From an uncultured Methanomassiliicoccales archaeon (GTDB lineage Archaea > Thermoplasmatota > Thermoplasmata > Methanomassiliicoccales > UBA472): a DNA stretch of 64,000 nucleotides. The translations under genes were made by a program, and so were the position numbers. A model generated the notes under the pieces. It was not told the DNA's origin. It worked only from the letters and a program-made list of their open reading frames with translations, and made no database searches. The stretch lies in NCBI GenBank assembly GCA_963695345.1, contig OY968769.1:2368001-2432000 (forward strand), written 5' to 3'. This document shows, one piece after another, positions 15,186 to 38,484 of the stretch. The first letter of the stretch is position 1; every line of letters starts with the position of its first letter.

Positions 15186-15243
15186 CCCTCGCCAATGCGA
15201 TACCGTTTATAGTCCAATGAATGAATACTCCTCAGGGTTAGCA

Positions 15244-15810
15244 ATGAAGATCATCGGTATCTCGGGGAGTCCCAGGGTCGACGGCAACACGGAGGTCCTG
15301 GTCAAAGAGGCGTTGGAAGGGGCCAGACAGAAAGGCGCGGAGATCGAGTTCGTAGCGCTCTCCGGCCGGAAGATCCAAGGCTGCCTGGCATGCACGGAAT
15401 GCGGCCGAAACGGCAAATGCGTCATCGATGATGAGATGCAGGAGATCTACCCCGGGCTGATGGCGGCCGATGGCGTGATCATAGGAACCCCGATCTATTT
15501 TGGGCAGATGACATCGCAGACCAAGGCATTCATCGACCGGACCTACCTGCTCTCCAAGCTGGGGAAGAAATTGGAGGGGAAGGTCGGTGGGGTAATCGCG
15601 GTCGGCGGGCGGGCCGGGCACGAGTTCACCACCGCGGCTCTGATGGACTTCATGACCCTACAAGGGTTGATCCTCCCCCCGAAGGCGTTCGCCCATTCTT
15701 ACGCCCGGGAGCTGGGGGCGGCCCGGTCGGACGAGAAGGGATTGAAGGAGGCCAGGGCCCTGGGTGAACGGGTGGTATCGCTGGCGGTCCGGCTGGCCCC
15801 GACCAAGTGA
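15244..15810 (+). CDS. Iron-sulfur flavoprotein (Isf-type flavodoxin family)
   Basis: MKIIGISGSPR..GNT, CxxCxxC-x5-C, GTPIYFG, KAFIDR. Confidence 0.9.
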   Translation: MKIIGISGSPRVDGNTEVLVKEALEGARQKGAEIEFVALSGRKIQGCLACTECGRNGKCVIDDEMQEIYPGLMAADGVIIGTPIYFGQMTSQTKAFIDRTYLLSKLGKKLEGKVGGVIAVGGRAGHEFTTAALMDFMTLQGLILPPKAFAHSYARELGAARSDEKGLKEARALGERVVSLAVRLAPTK

Positions 15811-16312
15811 GGAGGGATCACCGATCCCTGGAGAGCCAGATAACGAACGGGGGACCTACATCCTGTTGGCCTACCTGCGCCGTGACCAGACGATCACGAT
15901 AGGCAGGCTGGGCCCGATTCATTTCCTGGCCGGGACCTATGCCTATTGCGGCTCGGCCATGGCTGGCTACCGGGGGAGGGTGGGCCGGCATTTCTCCAGG
16001 GACAAGAAGCTGCGATGGCATATCGACTTCCTGCTGGAAGAGGCCGAACCGATGGCCGCATACCTGGCGCCGGGAGGAAAGGGCGTGGAATGCGCGCTCG
16101 GAATGCTCCTGTCCGGTTTGGAGGGCTCCCAACCCATCAAGGGATTCGGCTGTTCCGATTGCGGATGCATTTCACATCTCTTCTGGATCGAAGGCTCGTC
16201 TATTCCGGACCTGTCTGGAAAAAATGAAGGCGGCCCGGTTCGGGATATGTACCGCTGCGCAAAATCATTAATAGACTGGATACCCCTATCAATGGCAATA
16301 CTGGTATGGTGA
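15764..16312 (+). CDS. GIY-YIG/Uri superfamily endonuclease, DUF123 family (true start probably near 15812-15825)
   Basis: GTYILL, GTYAYCGSA, RWHIDFLL, EC, GFGCSDCGC.SHL. Confidence 0.85.
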   Translation: MNGWYRWRSGWPRPSEEGSPIPGEPDNERGTYILLAYLRRDQTITIGRLGPIHFLAGTYAYCGSAMAGYRGRVGRHFSRDKKLRWHIDFLLEEAEPMAAYLAPGGKGVECALGMLLSGLEGSQPIKGFGCSDCGCISHLFWIEGSSIPDLSGKNEGGPVRDMYRCAKSLIDWIPLSMAILVW

Positions 16313-16318
16313 TCTGTC

Positions 16319-16549
16319 GTGGTGGACCCTAAGGTGGAAAAGATCGAGCATAAGATCAAAGAACTGAACGCCATCAGGGGAGAGTACCGGGCCGAGGTCG
16401 ATGAGGCGGAGGCCCATTTCAAGAAACGCAAGATATCCAAAGAGGAATTTGACCGTATCAAGTCCAAGTGCGAAGAGAAGATGGGCCACATCAATGACAA
16501 GGTGAAGGCATGCCATGAGGAGCTTCACGCACTGCGTGACAAGAAATGA
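16319..16549 (+). CDS. Small coiled-coil hypothetical protein
   Basis: GGTGA SD, K/E-rich helical ORF followed by a GC hairpin and T-tract. Confidence 0.7.
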   Translation: MVDPKVEKIEHKIKELNAIRGEYRAEVDEAEAHFKKRKISKEEFDRIKSKCEEKMGHINDKVKACHEELHALRDKK

Positions 16550-16712
16550 ACGGGATCGGCCCGTCCGATCCGTTCGTCGCGAGGCGATCCCGATCCCCGG
16601 GGTACGATACATCGATTTTTCTCGGTCCTCCGCTATAACGCTGGATGAGGTTAGGCATGGCCGTCAGGTATAATCCTAATTTACTTATACTCAATAAACC
16701 AAATGCATATAT

Positions 16713-16994
16713 TGCCCGGAGGCGGAATGCGGGTCCGGACAGGAAGAGTTCAGGATGACACCGATGTCCCTGCTCGATCCTGATCCCTTTCGTGGTTGCG
16801 ACCACGGGCGTCATAGAAATGGACTTGGGTATTACCCATATCCAGGCGCACCTGCTCTAGAAGGGTAGTCCTGTTCATTCTGAACGGACCATCCCGCGGC
16901 AGAAAGAGAATACGGCCGCCTCGAGGGGACGGTCATTTTGTGGAATGACCTCCGCAGGTCGTCGGAATCCGGTCCGTACCGAAAACTCCGGGCA
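16713..16994 (+). ncRNA. Candidate structured ncRNA A (~282 nt), unknown family
   Basis: 5' TGCCCGGAG pairs with 3' CTCCGGGCA; extended terminal helix; at least 5 internal hairpins; GC-rich between AT-rich flanks; TATA-like TTATAC about 28 nt upstream; paralogous to element B. Confidence 0.6.
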
Positions 16995-17131
16995 TCATTC
17001 TTAATCGATGATTGACCAGTATTCTTAATTTTGTCCATACATCTGGGCTTGACGTATCTCAAATCTGTATGAAATCAAAGGATCTCGTTCTAACGAAGAA
17101 TAGAAATAGTCTGTAATGTCTAGTAATATAT

Positions 17132-17420
17132 TGGCCCGGAGGCGGAATGCATCTGGGGAAAACAGTGAAGGTGCCCTGCATCGTTTGTGGACGATGTCTT
17201 AGGAAACTGTCCCTGTTCCGGCGAGAGCTGGGTCTATGCAATGTGGTCGTTGCCTGCAGGCAACGGTTGATGCATGGATTCGCGAACGGAAAGACTCTCC
17301 TAACAAGAGAGAACCTACCAAGCGATACAGAGCGTTCGGGGTTCGATCGGATTCATCTGCAGATTTGACCCGACCTAACCGGAGAACGAAGTACCCAGCG
17401 GCCCTGTAAACCCCGGGCCA
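17132..17420 (+). ncRNA. Candidate structured ncRNA B (~289 nt), unknown family
   Basis: 5' TGGCCCGG pairs with 3' CCGGGCCA; same GCCCGGAGGCGGAATGC 5' motif as element A; several internal hairpins. Confidence 0.6.
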
Positions 17421-17571
17421 TCTACTCATCCTGCTAGAATGGAAATTATGGGCCGAAAATACCCTTAACATACCTATACTTTTCACTAGCCATTGCATTA
17501 GATAGATTTTTAATATGTTGATATGCTTCGGGGTTGTAATCTCGTTTATATTATCTTCGAGGGTTTCGATC

Positions 17572-19155
17572 ATGGAAGCCGCTGAGCACATACCCAAGAA
17601 CCTCCAGGCAGCCGTAGCCAAATTGGAGGATGCCATAGGAAAGGCGAACGTTAAGACCAGCAAGATGGAGAGATTGATTTACAGCCACGATCTTGCCCCA
17701 CTGCCGAACATGGCCCAGCTCGGTTTCAAGAACGTTCCGGACATCGTGGTCCGTCCGTCATCGACCGAGGACCTTCAGAATATCGTGAAGATCGCCGCCG
17801 AGGAAGGTATCCCGATCACCCCGAGAGGCTCGTCCACATGGGGACTGGCCGGCTCTGTGCCGGTGTTCGCGGGTCTCCTGATCGATTTCACCGGCGCCAT
17901 GAACAAGATCCTGAAGATCGATGAGGTCAACCTCGAAGTGACGGCCCAGGCGGGCTGCACCTGGAAGCAGGTCTATGAGGCCTGTCTGGAGAAAGGAATG
18001 CTCCTCGGGTCCTATCCGAGCAGCTACCCGAGCGCCACCATCGGAGGATGGACCTCCACCGGAGGCATCGGCGTAGGCACCTACAAGTATGGTGGCGCGG
18101 CCGATAACATCCGCGACATGGAGGTCGTGATGCCGGATGGGACCATCGTCAACACCGGTTTCAAAGGCCTCTGCGACAACATGACCGGCTACAACCTGAC
18201 CCGCATCATCAGCGGCGCCGAGGGTACACTGGGTGTAATCTCCAATATAACTTTCAAGCTAACTCCGGCACCGGAGATCTTCAGGCCTCTCACCTACTTC
18301 TTCAAGGACCTGCCCTCCATCGGCGCCCCCTTGTTCGAGATCGCCCACAAGCGCGTCGTCCCCCTGCACATAAGTTTCTCCGACGGCAACCACTTCGAAC
18401 TGCTGAAGAAGGCAGGCAAGCACGTGACCGAGGTCGCCACGGCCATGAACGTCGTTCTCGAGGGCGACAAAGAGACGGTCGCGCACGAGGAAGCGGTCAT
18501 AGACGCAGTGGTCGCCAAGTTCGGTGGCAGGAAGGCGGATGACGCCACCGCAGCCCATGAATGGGCAGAGAACTGCTACGAGTTCAGGTGCCGCGAGGTC
18601 GGATTGGGATGCATACCCGGTGAGGTAGTCGTCCCGGTCAAGGACTATGCGGTATTCGCCAACCGCCTGTACGAGCTCATGGACAACATGAAGATGACCG
18701 GGGCCATCATCGGCATAATGGCCGATCGGAACACCGTCATGTTCATGCCCTACTTCCTGTTCAACCCGGACGACCTGGTCCAGTTGACCGCACTGTCGTT
18801 CAGCAAGAAGTGCGGGGACATGGCCATGGAATACGGCGGCCGGCCGCTCGGATTCGGCGCCTTCTTCGCCTCCAACCTGGACGCGATACGCGGAAACGGG
18901 GCCAAATACATCCGTGCGATCAAGAAGACCATTGACCCGCAGGACATCATGAACCCGGGCAAGCTCACCGGAACGACGCTGCGATACGGCATCAAGATCC
19001 CGCCGATCCTGTTCGACAAGGGCATGGACGCGATGGCTTTGGCAAAGATCATGCTCCCTCGCGACACCCAGTTCGATGACAAGGCGGCGGCGTACGCCAA
19101 CGAGCGTATGATCAAGGAGCGGGCCGAGAAAGAGCACCAGCACCCGAAGCACTAA
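17572..19155 (+). CDS. FAD-binding oxidoreductase, GlcD/D-lactate dehydrogenase family
   Basis: PDIVVRP, PITPRGSST..AG, ATIGGW, GAEGTLGVI, DPQDIMNPGK. Confidence 0.88.
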   Translation: MEAAEHIPKNLQAAVAKLEDAIGKANVKTSKMERLIYSHDLAPLPNMAQLGFKNVPDIVVRPSSTEDLQNIVKIAAEEGIPITPRGSSTWGLAGSVPVFAGLLIDFTGAMNKILKIDEVNLEVTAQAGCTWKQVYEACLEKGMLLGSYPSSYPSATIGGWTSTGGIGVGTYKYGGAADNIRDMEVVMPDGTIVNTGFKGLCDNMTGYNLTRIISGAEGTLGVISNITFKLTPAPEIFRPLTYFFKDLPSIGAPLFEIAHKRVVPLHISFSDGNHFELLKKAGKHVTEVATAMNVVLEGDKETVAHEEAVIDAVVAKFGGRKADDATAAHEWAENCYEFRCREVGLGCIPGEVVVPVKDYAVFANRLYELMDNMKMTGAIIGIMADRNTVMFMPYFLFNPDDLVQLTALSFSKKCGDMAMEYGGRPLGFGAFFASNLDAIRGNGAKYIRAIKKTIDPQDIMNPGKLTGTTLRYGIKIPPILFDKGMDAMALAKIMLPRDTQFDDKAAAYANERMIKERAEKEHQHPKH

Positions 19156-19283: not shown

Positions 19284-19430
19284 TTACTTCGTGGCGTACT
19301 TATCCGGGCTTGCGTCGAACTTCTTCTTGCATCCCGGCGCGCAGAAGTAGTAGGTCTTTCCCTTGTACTCCGACTTCCACTTGGCGGTCTTCTCATCGAC
19401 CTGCATCTTGCATATCACGTCTTCAGCCAT
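19284..19430 (-). CDS. YHS/TRASH-domain copper chaperone-like protein (48 aa; not in the ORF track)
   Basis: MAEDVICKMQVDEKTAKWKSEYKGKTYYFCAPGCKKKFDASPDKYATK; directly downstream of copA. Confidence 0.88.
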   Translation of the reverse strand: MAEDVICKMQVDEKTAKWKSEYKGKTYYFCAPGCKKKFDASPDKYATK

Positions 19431-19446
19431 TTTTTCATTATCTCCC

Positions 19447-21945
19447 TTATTTCTTCCGTTTTATCTCTGGAGTATACCTCTTTAGCAGAGCGGCGTTGGA
19501 GACCACGGAAACGGACGACAACGCCATTGCCCCGGCGGCGATGATCGGGCTAAGCAGCCAACCGGTGACCGGGAACAATACGCCGGCGGCGATGGGGATG
19601 CCGGCGACGTTGTATCCGAACGCCCAGAACAGGTTCTGCCGGATCTTCCTCATCGTCTGCCGGCTCAACTGGATCGTGGCCACGACGTCCTTCAGGTCAT
19701 CCCTGATGAGGACCACGTCGCCTGTCTCCATGGCCACGTCGGTCCCGGAACCGATGGCCACGCCGATGTCCGCCTGGGCCAGTGCCGGCGCGTCATTGAC
19801 ACCGTCCCCGACCATCATTACCACCTTTCCCTGCTCCTGGAGCCTTGACACCTCCCTGACCTTGTCCTCGGGAAGCACCTCCGCCAGGATGTTGGTGATC
19901 CCCAACTGCTCGCCTATCGCCTTGGCGGTGCGGGCGTTGTCCCCGGTGATCATGAAGACCTCGATCCTCATTTCCTTGAGCGCCTCGACCGCTTCCTTCG
20001 CCGAGTCCTTAGCGACATCCGCGATGGCGATGACCCCGACCGGTACGCCCTCAATGGCCACGATTACGGCGGTCTTTCCCCGGGCCTCGAAATCGGTCAC
20101 CTTGGTGTCGACTTTCCCTACATCAATCTTATGCGAGGCCATGAGCTTGCGGCTGCCCACCAGCACTTCCTTTCCCTCCACCGAAGCGCGGATGCCCATG
20201 CCGGGAACATTCTCGAAGGCATCGGCGTCAGGCAGCTCCCCGTTCTTCTCCTTCGCCCTCCGGACGACCGCTTCCGCCAGTGGATGTTCCGATCCCTTCT
20301 CCGCGATCCCGGCGAGCCTTACCAGTTCCTCTTCCGGCATTCCGAACACCGCCACATCGGTGACCTGCGGCTCGCCCCTGGTCAGGGTGCCGGTCTTGTC
20401 GAAGACCACCGCGGTGATCCGGCCGGCGTTCTCCAGCGATTCGCTGCTCTTGATCAGTATCCCGTTCTCCGCGCCCTTTCCCGTGCCGACCATGATGGCG
20501 GTGGGTGTGGCCAGGCCCAACGCGCACGGGCAGGCTATGACCATCACGGAGATGAAAACGGTCAGGGAGAATATGAACTGGGGCTGGGTCACTCCGAACA
20601 GTCCGTATCCGATGAAGAACCAGAACAGGAAGGTGATCACCGCTATCGATATCACCGCCGGTACGAAGACGCCTGCCACCTTGTCCGCCAGCCTTTGTAT
20701 CGGGGCCTTGGAGGCCTGGGCGTTCTCCACCAGGCGCACTATCTGGGCCAACGCCGTGTCCTTGCCCACCTTGGTGGCCCTGACCTTGAGCAGACCGTTC
20801 TTGTTGATCGTCCCTCCGATCACGTTCGAGTTCTCGGACTTGGAGACCGGCATGCTCTCCCCGGTGAGAAGCGACTCGTCGACCGATGAGACGCCCTCGA
20901 TGACGACCCCGTCCGTGGGGACCTTCTCCCCCGGCCGGACCACCATCACATCGCTGACGTCCAGCTCGTCGGCCTGGACCTGCACCTCGACGCCGTCCCT
21001 GATGATCACCGCGGTCTTGGCCTGGAGGTCGATCAGCCTGCGGATAGCCTCGGAGGTCCTGCTCTTGGCCTTGGCCTCGAGGTATTTGCCGAACAGGATC
21101 AGCGCGATGATCATCGTCGACGTGTCGTAGTATACGCTCGGATCGATGAACGAGGAAGGGAAGAAGGTGACCGCCACGCTATAGAAGTACGCCGCCGAAG
21201 TGCCCACCGCGATCAAGGTGTCCATGTTCGCCCTTCTGTTACGGAGAGCCTTGTAGGTGCCGGAATAGAACTGATACCCGATGATGAACTGGACCGGAGT
21301 GGCCACCAGGAACAGGATCAGGTTCCCCCACTCCATGAGGAAATGGACCTCCCCCAACGGGGTGAACTGCATCAGGAGCATGAACACCATGATAGGTATC
21401 GCCGTCGAGAGAGCGGCGATGAGCAACACCTTCTGCCGTTTCAGCTCCTTGGCCCGGACCTCTTTCTCCTGGTCCGAGTCCGTGGATTCCAAGACCTCAT
21501 AGCCTGCGTCCATGATGGCCTTCTTCATCTGCGGGACCCGCACCCTCTGGGGGTCGTACCGGACAGTGAGCTTCTCGGTGGCCAGGTTGACCGATGCGCT
21601 CAGCACGCCATCGAGCGCCTGGACCGCCTCCTCGACGGTGGAGGAACAGGAGGCGCAGCTCATGCCCCCGATGGATATCGTGACCTCATTGATTATGACA
21701 TCGTAACCTGCGTCGATGACCGCCTTCTTCATCTCCTCGATGTTGACCTTGGTCGGATCGTACGTGACCGTCGCCTTTTCGGTGGCCAGATTCACGTTCG
21801 CATTCTCGATCCCGTCGAGGCCGGAAAGGCTGTCGGAGATGGTCTGCGCACAACTGGCGCAGGTCATGCCAGTCAGCCCGAATGAGGCGGTCCTCTTGCC
21901 TTTCTGCGGGACCGGTTCAGCGCCATCGGTGTCATTTTCGCTCAT
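19447..21945 (-). CDS. copA: Cu(I)-translocating P1B-type ATPase
   Basis: Two HMA domains (GMTCASC, GMSCASC), TGES, CPC, DKTGT, SEHP, GDGVNDAPAL, YN and MALSS motifs. Confidence 0.96.
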   Translation of the reverse strand: MSENDTDGAEPVPQKGKRTASFGLTGMTCASCAQTISDSLSGLDGIENANVNLATEKATVTYDPTKVNIEEMKKAVIDAGYDVIINEVTISIGGMSCASCSSTVEEAVQALDGVLSASVNLATEKLTVRYDPQRVRVPQMKKAIMDAGYEVLESTDSDQEKEVRAKELKRQKVLLIAALSTAIPIMVFMLLMQFTPLGEVHFLMEWGNLILFLVATPVQFIIGYQFYSGTYKALRNRRANMDTLIAVGTSAAYFYSVAVTFFPSSFIDPSVYYDTSTMIIALILFGKYLEAKAKSRTSEAIRRLIDLQAKTAVIIRDGVEVQVQADELDVSDVMVVRPGEKVPTDGVVIEGVSSVDESLLTGESMPVSKSENSNVIGGTINKNGLLKVRATKVGKDTALAQIVRLVENAQASKAPIQRLADKVAGVFVPAVISIAVITFLFWFFIGYGLFGVTQPQFIFSLTVFISVMVIACPCALGLATPTAIMVGTGKGAENGILIKSSESLENAGRITAVVFDKTGTLTRGEPQVTDVAVFGMPEEELVRLAGIAEKGSEHPLAEAVVRRAKEKNGELPDADAFENVPGMGIRASVEGKEVLVGSRKLMASHKIDVGKVDTKVTDFEARGKTAVIVAIEGVPVGVIAIADVAKDSAKEAVEALKEMRIEVFMITGDNARTAKAIGEQLGITNILAEVLPEDKVREVSRLQEQGKVVMMVGDGVNDAPALAQADIGVAIGSGTDVAMETGDVVLIRDDLKDVVATIQLSRQTMRKIRQNLFWAFGYNVAGIPIAAGVLFPVTGWLLSPIIAAGAMALSSVSVVSNAALLKRYTPEIKRKK

Positions 21946-38185: not shown

Positions 38186-38484
38186 GCCAGGTGAGGGTAG
38201 TAGTCCCCTTTCTGTTTCAGGCAGCATTCAACTTAGCGCCCTACCTGCCAGTCCTGAGCTGTCATTCCGGCTGTTTGGGCTTGCTCCTGTGAGGTGTCGC
38301 CGTTTCACCAAATCCCCGGGAACGTCACCGTCTAGCGGATCATTCTATTGATCGGGGCTGTGTCGTTTCTGCGCCCTTGCCCGGGCTCTCGCCCGACCGC
38401 TTGTGCAGTCCACATTTCTCATGGAGTGGGGAACTTCCTCAGCTGGACCGAAGTCCTACCGTCAGCCGCCCTCCCTCTCCTGGC
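38186..38484 (-). ncRNA. rnpB: Archaeal RNase P RNA
   Basis: Minus strand: P1 GCCAGG-AGAGGG/CCCTCACCTGGC, CR-I GAGGAAGTTCCCC, CAGAAACG, GGAGCAAG, GAATGCTGCC, CR-V AACAGAAAGGGGACTA. Confidence 0.92.

Follow-up and report, generated by a model that had tools for sequence, protein, structure and literature searches.

Two short blocks of GC-rich DNA, A and B, lie one behind the other in the window, by which we mean the whole 64,000-nt stretch of archaeal DNA that was analyzed. They are paralogous structured noncoding RNA genes without an Rfam family. It is highly likely that they are stand-alone, separately promoted members of one RNA family whose transcripts are spliced at a motif of the bulge-helix-bulge (BHB) kind into closed, structured rings. 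Contigs assembled from environmental RNA are confined to the rings and carry head-to-tail joints in the bulges, and order-wide homologues retain the motif within a covarying fold.

Layout of the locus

The initial annotation had drawn attention to two GC-rich blocks with an identical 17-mer and a common 3' motif, all of which were located where it had placed them. The 17-mer GCCCGGAGGCGGAATGC is present at 16714-16730 and 17134-17150, a spacing of 420 nt in the window, and the 3' terminus AAAC(T/C)CCGGGC is common to A (to 16993) and B (to 17418). GC content is 0.55-0.57 within the blocks versus 0.36-0.38 in the spacer. Exact copies of the 17-mer in the host genome number two, those of A and B; one extra site has two mismatches, and a reversed control pattern likewise gives one site. 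Features of the locus are as follows (window coordinates, strand, feature, basis).

16319..16549, +, gene for a 76-aa coiled-coil protein, linked to the RNA genes
16680..16690, +, gene A's TATA-like box, TTTACTTATAC (sequence; TATA survey of homologues)
16714..16993, +, RNA A precursor, with the outer BHB helix strands at its two ends (sequence, fold; end-to-end match of model R1)
16714..16728, +, 5' BHB half of A: outer helix 16714-16721, strand of the 4-bp helix 16722-16725, bulge AAU 16726-16728 (ring joint within the bulge)
16728..16984, +, mature circular RNA A, 257 nt (RNA contig joints)
16931..16950, +, hairpin GGUCAUUUUGUGGAAUGACC with hexaloop UUGUGG, the best-conserved piece of A-type RNAs (alignment)
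16979..16993, +, 3' BHB half of A: helix strand 16979-16982, bulge 16983-16985, outer helix 16986-16993
17099..17109, +, gene B's TATA-like box, AATAGAAATAG (sequence; TATA survey of homologues)
17134..17418, +, precursor of RNA B (model R1, 220.5 bits; fold)
17134..17148, +, 5' BHB half of B: outer helix 17134-17141, helix strand GCGG 17142-17145, bulge AAU 17146-17148
17148..17409, +, mature circular RNA B, 262 nt (RNA contig joints)
17177..17197, +, B's 5' hairpin; loop UUUGUGGA, a UUGNGG hexaloop with a U-A closing pair (helix 6 of the covariation test)
17249..17264, +, hairpin GUUGCCUGCAGGCAAC of B (sequence, alignment)
17345..17354, +, 3' hairpin tip of B, AUCUGCAGAU (alignment)
17404..17418, +, 3' BHB half of B: helix strand CUGU 17404-17407, bulge AAA 17408-17410, outer helix 17411-17418
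17545..17553, +, TATA-like box TTTATATTA, about 26 nt 5' of the next gene's ATG
17572..19155, +, gene for a GlcD-like FAD-linked oxidase (Pfam PF01565 and PF02913; synteny)

The bulge-helix-bulge handle and the conserved fold

Pairing between the 5' and 3' ends of each element is present as had been claimed, and the resulting handle is in both cases a canonical BHB, in which an 8-bp outer helix and an inner helix enclose a 4-bp helix, with a 3-nt bulge on either side of the latter. A central 4-bp helix defines the BHB (hBHBh') substrates of the archaeal splicing endonuclease, according to a published study (PMC4731332). Here this helix is GCGG/CUGU in B and GCGG/CCGA in A, with one G.A mismatch in A at a pair that is G.U in relatives; the outer helix of B contains one A.C mismatch. 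The two bulges lie on opposite strands, flanking this helix. The 5' bulge reads AAU in A, B, and most homologues. In the 3' bulge, A and B have AAA, and most homologues AAA, AAG, or AAU.

This geometry is preserved throughout 49 homologues. In their alignment the 8-bp outer helix is paired in 98.7% of cells, with double changes at five of its eight pairs; it covaries as GCCCGGAG/CUCCGGGC, GCCCGGGG/CCCCGGGC, GUCCGGGG/CCCCGGAC, and GCCCAAAG/CUUUGGGC, and the 4-bp helix as GCGG/CCGU, GCCG/CGGU, GCUG/CAGU, and GCAG/CUGU, while the inner helices are paired in 95-99% of cells. The compensatory differences first noticed between the handles of A and B are real and are shown far better across the homologues.

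Conservation extends well into the interiors. The predicted fold of A (-120.2 kcal/mol, z -3.4) is matched by none of 200 shuffles and that of B (-111.3 kcal/mol, z -2.85) by one of 200. Over the whole fold 94.3% of alignment cells are paired, versus 34-42% when partners are slid as a control, and double changes occur in 37 of 45 pairs, a level reached by none of 500 shuffles. Hairpins proposed earlier are present where checked (16931-16950, 17177-17197, and 17249-17264). In the second of these, helix 6, seven of eight pairs show compensatory change, with 98% of cells paired. The further view that the interiors are a variable core that cannot be aligned has to be given up: model R1, which was built from genes of the B type, aligns with A over its full length (16714-16993; 32.4 bits, E 5e-8), members from another family bridge both types, and a conserved covarying fold is common to A and B.

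Several loops are close to invariant. The A-type hairpin CAUU.UG.GGAAUG is found in 16 of 16 sequences from four families, with U as the fifth base in 15 of the 16, and its motif has one exact site in the host genome. At the 3' tip of B, 20 of 21 B-type RNAs (all from the window's family) have CUGCAG and the remaining one CUGCUG; in a second family the tip is UUGCGG. A kissing interaction between the two CUGCAG-type loops of B was considered and rejected, as the loops do not covary (CCGCGA and CCAUGG versus CUGCAG and UUGCGG). As a separate observation, the loops of B are often palindromic, and intermolecular pairing through them is an idea only.

Probable rings in environmental RNA

RNA libraries from 14 studies contain part of the ring, and four runs were analyzed in detail. 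Evidence for the rings comes from assembled metatranscriptome contigs, as distinct from raw reads, of four RNA libraries from four studies. In the sediment and wetland metatranscriptomes of these four, the rings are sufficiently abundant to have been assembled; sequencing-run shares (0.15-0.41) were not taken as habitat evidence, and the four analyzed runs alone were used.

Contig pieces are confined to 16726-16984 and 17146-17409, where ring cover reaches a depth of hundreds to thousands, and contig cover is zero at 16500-16694, 17007-17123, and 17436-17650. For A, contigs join 16982 back to 16726 (back 257, both=2) in all four runs; with AA on either side, this joint can be placed only to within 2 nt. 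For B, 17398 (+8 nt) is joined back to 17146 in three of the four; runs X6 and X9 have loose ends at 17409 that start TGCATCTG, and that of X9 continues TGCATCTGGGGAAAAC. Both joints are located in the two 3-nt bulges. Because cover is limited to the ring and the head-to-tail joints fall at the bulges, the mature RNAs are taken to be rings, 257 nt long for A and 262 nt for B. The contig joints indicate that bulge cleavage and ring ligation take place in vivo, for A in four studies and for B in three. None of the genome assemblies examined shows a head-to-tail tandem duplication, which argues, if only indirectly, against such a duplication in the DNA of environmental strains as the source of the joints.

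Promoters, T-runs, and processing enzymes

The TATA-like TTATAC noted upstream of A lies at 16685-16690, about 26 nt 5' of its first G. In a survey of homologues, a TATA-like octamer (at least 7 of 8 A/T, at -42 to -17) precedes 34 of 34 elements versus 14% of 2000 random positions, in agreement with the original suggestion of two separately promoted paralogous RNA genes. T-runs follow within 30 nt downstream of 21 of the 34 elements, versus 9% of random positions; they are absent 3' of the other 13, both window genes included. The box about 26 nt before the ATG of the GlcD-like gene suggests that this gene is transcribed from a promoter of its own, as a leaderless mRNA.

Both enzymes needed for the proposed route are encoded in the genome: the tRNA-splicing endonuclease EndA (PF01974; a single 388-aa frame with two domains) and RtcB (601.5 bits). 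The primary transcript would start a few bases 5' of GCCCGG and end soon 3' of CCGGGC, and its ends would fold together as the canonical BHB. Presumably EndA would then cut behind the second base of each 3-nt bulge, and RtcB would ligate the ends of the excised piece. The outer helix would be thrown away, and what remains would be a covalently closed RNA with a high degree of structure, 257 nt long for A and 262 nt for B. The handle had been proposed to serve protein binding or processing. Its part in processing stands; a binding stem of the Y RNA or 6S type it is not, since it is a BHB splice site that is removed, leaving a circular product.

Known families

At gathering level, Rfam finds only RNase P RNA in the window (38189-38481, minus strand, 208.6 bits), which the initial annotation had correctly recognized there at 38186-38484. 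A permissive Rfam scan of 16550-17520 yields two matches, with E values of 4.2 and 5.5, both mainly in the spacer between A and B. The expectation that the elements belong to no known family is therefore upheld at the level of significant Rfam matches at the locus. They are not SRP RNA: RF01857 has no match there even at E up to 10, and the canonical gene lies elsewhere (G000:C1:62670-62979, 158.6 bits). Two 5S genes are also found elsewhere in the genome. A tRNA or rRNA intron was rejected, as ARAGORN finds no tRNA in 16000-18000 and the window has no rRNA match. Matches to C/D box sRNAs are sub-threshold only (14.5-22.9 bits against cutoffs of 38-45); there are five, in two of five homologous loci, three of one locus falling inside the element. 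A and B are not mutual circular permutations either, since profile searches with doubled rings give collinear matches only, bridged by the second family. Our literature search found no published description of these ring RNAs.

Alternative explanations

The alternative that deserves most attention, unlikely as it appears to us, treats A and B as introns of the BHB type, or as leader modules acting in cis, within the GlcD-like transcript. The elements would belong to the 5' UTR of read-through transcripts spliced by EndA and RtcB, the rings would be stable by-products, and what matters would be the spliced mRNA or its control. The arrangement of the genes speaks for it: in 29 of 31 loci the RNA genes immediately precede the GlcD-like gene on the same strand (the remaining two loci are interrupted by contig ends), three further families show the same position, and a GlcD orthologue is present in 149 of 151 genomes of the order. 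There is also a precedent in the 5' UTR BHB intron of HVO_1309 in Haloferax (PMC7714728). Against this stand the TATA-like box that each element has at a fixed distance, the T-runs after most of them, and the separate box just before the GlcD ATG. Conservation and covariation of the interior far exceed what an intron needs, and the would-be exons and the GlcD start have no contig cover at all while the rings are covered so deeply.

Other readings are far less probable. One, very improbable in our view, is that the rings are a circularly permuted known RNA, like the SRP RNA of Thermoproteus, that linear covariance models have missed; GGUCCGGACAGGAAG in A, which we take to resemble the SRP helix-8 motif loosely, was counted in its favor. 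Rfam models are unable to align over a permutation point, and the permuted SRP RNA is a precedent (PMC4731332). Yet canonical SRP RNA, RNase P RNA, and both 5S genes are present elsewhere, each genome has two to three paralogues, and permissive Rfam scans show no partial match to either window element and, at five homologous loci, nothing above sub-threshold C/D box noise. The prospects are equally slim for linear transcripts, about 285 nt long, that pair their ends into a protein-binding handle in the style of Y RNA or 6S RNA, which is how the initial annotation had read the long interrupted terminal helix and variable core. Rfam gives no match to Y RNA or 6S; the terminal stem is missing from the RNA contigs, with the outer helix uncovered in four RNA data sets and the ends joined head to tail at the bulges. 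Judged by these contig joints, the stable products are circles of some 257 and 262 nt. Hardly credible, finally, is the notion that the elements are mobile (MITE-like) or encode small proteins. Their ends are inverted repeats, and B contains a 73-aa ORF beginning at the handle AUG, but the genome has two copies only, and their position is fixed and syntenic across the order. In homologues the frame opened by the handle AUG is not conserved: it may be lacking, and where present its length varies between 7 and 94 aa.

Relation to known systems and putative function

Closest is the circular, permuted SRP RNA of Thermoproteus tenax (Plagens et al. 2015, PMC4731332), likewise a structured RNA of about 300 nt from a stand-alone gene with its own TATA box, whose leader and trailer form a BHB cut by the splicing endonuclease and which is circular when mature and functional. 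There a universal RNA of known function has been rearranged, whereas here canonical SRP RNA is encoded elsewhere, the rings match no family, and two to three paralogues are conserved over an entire order. The BHB intron in the 5' UTR of Haloferax volcanii HVO_1309 (Schwarz et al. 2020, PMC7714728) is similarly a BHB substrate outside tRNA and rRNA, upstream of a protein gene, with a circular excised piece. It differs in sitting within an mRNA leader; here there is an own promoter, a large covarying fold, and cover far above that of the flanks. Known RNAs processed via a BHB stem share the same biogenesis, EndA cutting followed by ligation, but there the rings are intermediates or by-products, and here the locus has no tRNA and no rRNA match. 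The circular C/D box sRNAs of thermophilic archaea are small, stable, circular, and noncoding too (PMC12558985); they are about 60 nt long, have C and D boxes, and depend on an Rnl-type ligase with no BHB, in contrast to the sub-threshold C/D matches seen here.

Apart from the permuted SRP RNA, the published BHB substrates outside tRNA and rRNA compared here are intermediates or by-products. The family described here differs: it is a dedicated gene family whose sole visible product is a large, conserved, covarying ring. Our best guess as to function, about as likely as its opposite if the ring interpretation holds, is a long-lived scaffold or regulator that acts in trans together with proteins. 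Contacts could be made through the invariant hairpins with a hexaloop (UUGNGG; CUGCAG in B) and through the internal loop beside the joint. Ring function may be linked to the adjacent downstream GlcD-like flavoenzyme gene, and strict placement upstream of one gene could point to a role in cis rather than in trans.

A broader proposal is more tentative, and we would sooner expect it to fail than to hold in full. It envisions an undescribed class of housekeeping-level, obligately circular structured RNAs with dedicated genes and two to three paralogues per genome, forming the core of an RNP in one methanogen order. Hexaloops would be docking sites for protein or RNA, a nearby coiled-coil protein might be a partner, and function would be tied to the GlcD-like flavoenzyme adjoining across five families. 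If true, circularization by the tRNA-splicing machinery would be a regular archaeal route to long-lived functional RNAs, beyond mere processing.

The host order comprises methanogens relevant to gut and wetland methane and should provide a culturable test case for the role of stable structured circular RNA in a prokaryote. The RNAs also offer a natural scaffold of about 260 nt circularized efficiently by archaeal enzymes. The family is absent from Rfam and will be misannotated as intergenic DNA in every genome of the group.

Distribution across the order

The homologue search that had been recommended found relatives across the order. Profile searches of 151 genomes of the order with R1 place B-type RNAs in 51 genomes of two families. 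A-type RNAs were searched with a 106-position 3' module, which is present in 48 of the 151 genomes, in four families; for family f6 a DNA search was used. In a phylum-wide sample, also of 151 genomes, three match, two of them being the host genome and one of the same family; beyond the order there is a single weak match (E 0.002).

The 76-aa protein has a taxonomic range that mirrors that of the B-type RNAs; this range and its linkage to the RNA genes make it a candidate partner only. It has no Pfam family above threshold, and Atlas gives only unnamed Thermoplasmatota clusters.

Two pattern searches were of more limited use. A rigid BHB scan was noisy, with several chance hits scoring 26-28 per 2.6 kb. 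Its first version listed neither window gene and its second listed A and missed B, the gene with the A.C mismatch in its outer helix; hits were used only if they lay just upstream of a GlcD gene and were family-like. The 17-mer pattern proved too loose for a scan of the whole collection, the matches listed being mostly bacterial chance matches. Of five archaeal loci checked from that scan, the family is present in three of three from Methanomassiliicoccales and in neither of the two from Methanococcoides and Methanimicrococcus.

Genus g13 of family f6 (two loci) and family f4 (one locus) show no element, and in the host-associated family f7 none of 64 matches either model. In one f7 genome, G054, a BHB candidate lies upstream of GlcD, and its first ~135 nt are about 70% conserved in 12 of 41 f7 genomes.

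Two paralogous elements without a recognised family

The 1-kb gap between a gene for a 76-aa coiled-coil protein and a GlcD-like FAD-oxidase gene is occupied by two tandem elements, A and B.

16319-16549, 76-aa coiled-coil gene
16714-16993, element A
17134-17418, element B
17572-19155, plus strand, GlcD-like FAD-oxidase gene
38189-38481, minus strand, archaeal RNase P RNA, matched over its full length (model 1-288) at 208.6 bits

An identical 17-mer opens both elements (16714-16730 and 17134-17150), AAAC(T/C)CCGGGC closes both (at 16993 and 17418), and in each the two ends zip into a long interrupted helix. The blocks have a GC content of 0.55-0.57, against 0.36-0.38 in the AT-rich spacer; coordinates and contrast agree with the initial annotation. 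Predicted folding energies are -120.2 kcal/mol for A (z -3.4; equalled by none of 200 shuffles) and -111.3 kcal/mol for B (z -2.85; equalled by one of 200).

Rfam at gathering level gave RNase P RNA as the sole match in the whole window, present as initially described with slightly different limits (38186-38484 in the earlier reading). A permissive Rfam scan of the A/B region gave no credible match, so the view that the pair belongs to no recognised family holds, and ARAGORN found no tRNA at the locus. SRP RNA was considered as an identity and rejected: the genuine SRP RNA lies elsewhere in the genome (158.6 bits). The 17-mer has two exact copies in the genome, those of A and B, which are therefore not dispersed repeats of the MITE kind. 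Two 5S rRNA genes stand in tandem elsewhere in the genome, about 175 nt from each other and beyond the window (G000:C1:1896740-1897155, minus strand; 83.6 and 82.2 bits).

A conserved fold across the order

The A-B pair is kept in all seven other genomes of the genus at 71-82% identity, and in other genera the same end motifs are seen again, in many cases as two or three tandem copies. With a model built from B-type genes (R1), members were detected in 51 of the order's 151 genomes: 39/46 in the window's family (f1), 10/10 in f5, 1/24 (weak) in f6, 0/64 in f7 and 0/4 in f3. Sampling the whole phylum yielded matches in 3 of 151 genomes, namely the window's own, another of its family and one weak match (E 0.002). 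The family also appears in three public Methanomassiliicoccales archaeon records.

Among 49 aligned members, 94.3% of cells pair, a share that drops to 34-42% if partners are displaced by one to three columns; two-sided changes occur at 37 of 45 pairs, and none of 500 shuffles attains any of the measures. These figures are biased in favour of the fold by an alignment made to fit the model. An independent MAFFT/RNAalifold treatment of 21 sequences gave compensatory change at 24 of 45 pairs. The compensatory changes first read between the handles of A and B are real and better shown across the 49 homologues. The core, earlier regarded as variable, proves alignable: R1 spans A from one end to the other at 32.4 bits. 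When the ring sequences were doubled and searched with profiles, A and B aligned in collinear order, with f5 members linking both. These searches dispose of the idea that the two are permuted versions of each other.

A-type genes share a 3' module, whose 106-position model (R2) matched 48 of 151 genomes (f1 33/46, f2 1/1, f3 4/4, f5 9/10, f6 0/24, f7 0/64). Its hairpin CAUU.UG.GGAAUG (16931-16950 in the window) is invariant in 16 of 16 sequences from four families, with U as fifth base in 15. The 5' hairpin of B (17177-17197) carries a U-A-closed hexaloop UUGNGG of the same kind as A's; its 3' hairpin has CUGCAG, replaced by UUGCGG in f5. In genes A and B of one locus (L012, G001:C19), the loops of B-type hairpins tend to be palindromes (CUGCAG, CCAUGG, GGCC/CGCG), which would allow intermolecular loop-loop pairing.

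The handle as a predicted splice site

The outer helix of the paired ends, or handle, is 8 bp long (GCCCGGAG/CYCCGGGC). It is followed by a 3-nt bulge (AAA) in the 3' strand, a central helix of 4 bp (for B, GCGG/CUGU; for A, GCGG/CCGA, whose G.A is replaced by G.U in relatives) and a 3-nt bulge (AAU) in the 5' strand, with an inner helix beyond. This arrangement fits the bulge-helix-bulge (BHB) motif as quoted in PMC4731332. The geometry is retained across 49 homologues through covariation of the outer helix (GCCCGGGG/CCCCGGGC, GUCCGGGG/CCCCGGAC, GCCCAAAG/CUUUGGGC, GCCUGGGG/CCCCAGGC) and of the 4-bp helix (GCCG/CGGU, GCUG/CAGU, GCAG/CUGU). Judged by its geometry, the handle common to A and B is a predicted splice site, and the genome encodes both a two-domain EndA and RtcB. 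Of the two roles first proposed for the handle, protein binding or processing, processing is the one borne out; a scaffold stem of the Y RNA or 6S type is not, as the outer helices are missing from RNA contigs. GGAAUG is found both on the 5' side of the handle (16722-16730, GCGGAAUGC) and in the 3' part of the hairpin that is invariant in A (16942-16949, GUGGAAUGAC), which may reflect chance or a common recognition element.

Circular products

The stretch is partly represented in 23 rows of public runs (14 studies), 19 of them recorded as RNA libraries. Assembled RNA contigs of four of these runs, each from a different study, were placed on 16500-17650. Cover is zero over the end of the upstream gene, the spacer and the beginning of the FAD-oxidase gene in all four; the pieces are confined to 16726-16984 and 17146-17409, and summed depth over A and B reaches hundreds to thousands. 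A back-joint from 16982 to 16726 in A (a step back of 257, two letters ambiguous) occurs in four of four runs. One from 17398 to 17146 in B occurs in three of four, with eight additional letters that are the next bases in a strain without one C. In X6 and X9, the loose ends found at 17409 start with TGCATCTG, and X9 continues with TGCATCTGGGGAAAAC.

Both joints sit in the two bulges of the handle, as would be expected if each bulge were cut past its second base; this points to rings of 257 nt (16728-16984) and 262 nt (17148-17409) as the mature forms of A and B. Discrete linear transcripts of about 285 nt had been anticipated; the contigs instead show these rings, with ends joined. Duplication in DNA is an unlikely source of the head-to-tail joints, since it is absent from the genome assemblies examined and the joints match splice-site geometry in both paralogues.

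Literature on Methanomassiliicoccales ncRNA, archaeal circular RNA, BHB and RtcB yielded no account of the family. In the text available, the order's genome paper (PMC4153887) gives Rfam-derived ncRNAs only, and work on Thermoplasmatota circular RNA (PMC12918454) gives rRNA only. None of the archaeal ring classes described in PMC12558985 (rRNA intermediates, tRNA introns, C/D sRNAs, 5S-, SRP- and RNase P-associated rings, omega RNAs) fits A and B. Closest to them is the SRP RNA of Thermoproteus, which is permuted and circular; the machinery is known, and a dedicated family of structured rings is new.

Transcription and function

Among 34 elements drawn from 20 loci, an octamer with at least seven A/T starts 30-41 nt before the first G in every one, compared with 14% of 2000 random positions, in keeping with the earlier proposal of separately transcribed paralogous RNAs. 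A T-run within 30 nt past the last C accompanies 21 of 34 (against 9%), the window's A and B lying outside those 21. The homologous elements hold no conserved ORF, the frame from the handle AUG ranging from 7 to 94 aa or being missing.

Ring biogenesis is well supported; the role of the rings is not. The favoured reading makes them putative trans-acting, long-lived RNAs working with proteins, and draws on promoters of their own, the presence of two or three paralogues, an extensive fold with covariation, loops that do not vary and a high steady-state level. A's hairpin loop (AUUUUGUGG) may resemble a eukaryotic Sm site, and the genome has two LSM genes. An internal loop by the joint, GAA opposite AGUA, may resemble the sarcin-ricin/loop-E motif; its G is not constant among homologues. 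The main rival to a trans-acting role is that A and B act in cis on the GlcD transcript, either as its introns or as modules of its leader, for which strict synteny with the GlcD-like gene speaks, as does a Haloferax precedent, HVO_1309 (PMC7714728).

The GlcD-like gene and its neighbourhood

At 29 of 31 loci the GlcD-like gene (PF01565, PF02913) comes directly after the final RNA gene in the same orientation, the remaining two loci ending at contig edges. Its orthologue is present in 149 of the order's 151 genomes. In the window, a TATA-like box some 26 nt ahead of the GlcD ATG suggests that the gene has a promoter to itself. In the 2.5 kb upstream of this gene in 19 genomes of other families, BHB-closed elements of 265-283 nt were found in f2 (1/1) and f6 (4/6), and one f6 genus has such an element in 6/6 genomes; none was found in f4 (one genome) or the other sampled f6 genus (two). 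The BHB scan gave two elements in f3, where R2 matched the 3' module in 4/4, and f7 gave a candidate in 1/7, with partial conservation in 12/41 genomes. In much of f7, the host-associated family (e.g. G060:C1:378774-380297; genera such as g14, g20, g22 and g25), the GlcD-like domain lies in a 900-1190-aa frame, compared with about 530-550 aa in the window's family, implying an enzyme fused to another part there.

The 76-aa protein, of no named family, has the range of the B-type RNAs (f1 44/46, f5 9/10, one weak match elsewhere), and in f5 its gene lies at most about 2 kb from the RNA genes. Since f1 and f5 may form one clade, this shared range is a lead rather than a correlation.

Genes for an FMN_red flavoprotein (15217-15810, plus strand) and a DUF123 protein (15764-16312, plus strand), the first overlapping the start of the second by 47 nt, keep their place ahead of the RNA genes in many genera of the window's family. 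In some genera a small Cys-rich DUF3795 gene (MKIGVCGIACEKCPRM...; L014:2510-2743, plus strand; equivalents in L017 and L024) lies between coiled-coil and RNA genes, on the opposite strand at least in L014; it is missing from the window. Converging on the GlcD-like gene are an 832-aa ORF for a copper-type P-type ATPase (19284-21945, minus strand) and, just past its stop on the same strand, a 48-aa Cys-rich ORF, both named from translations.
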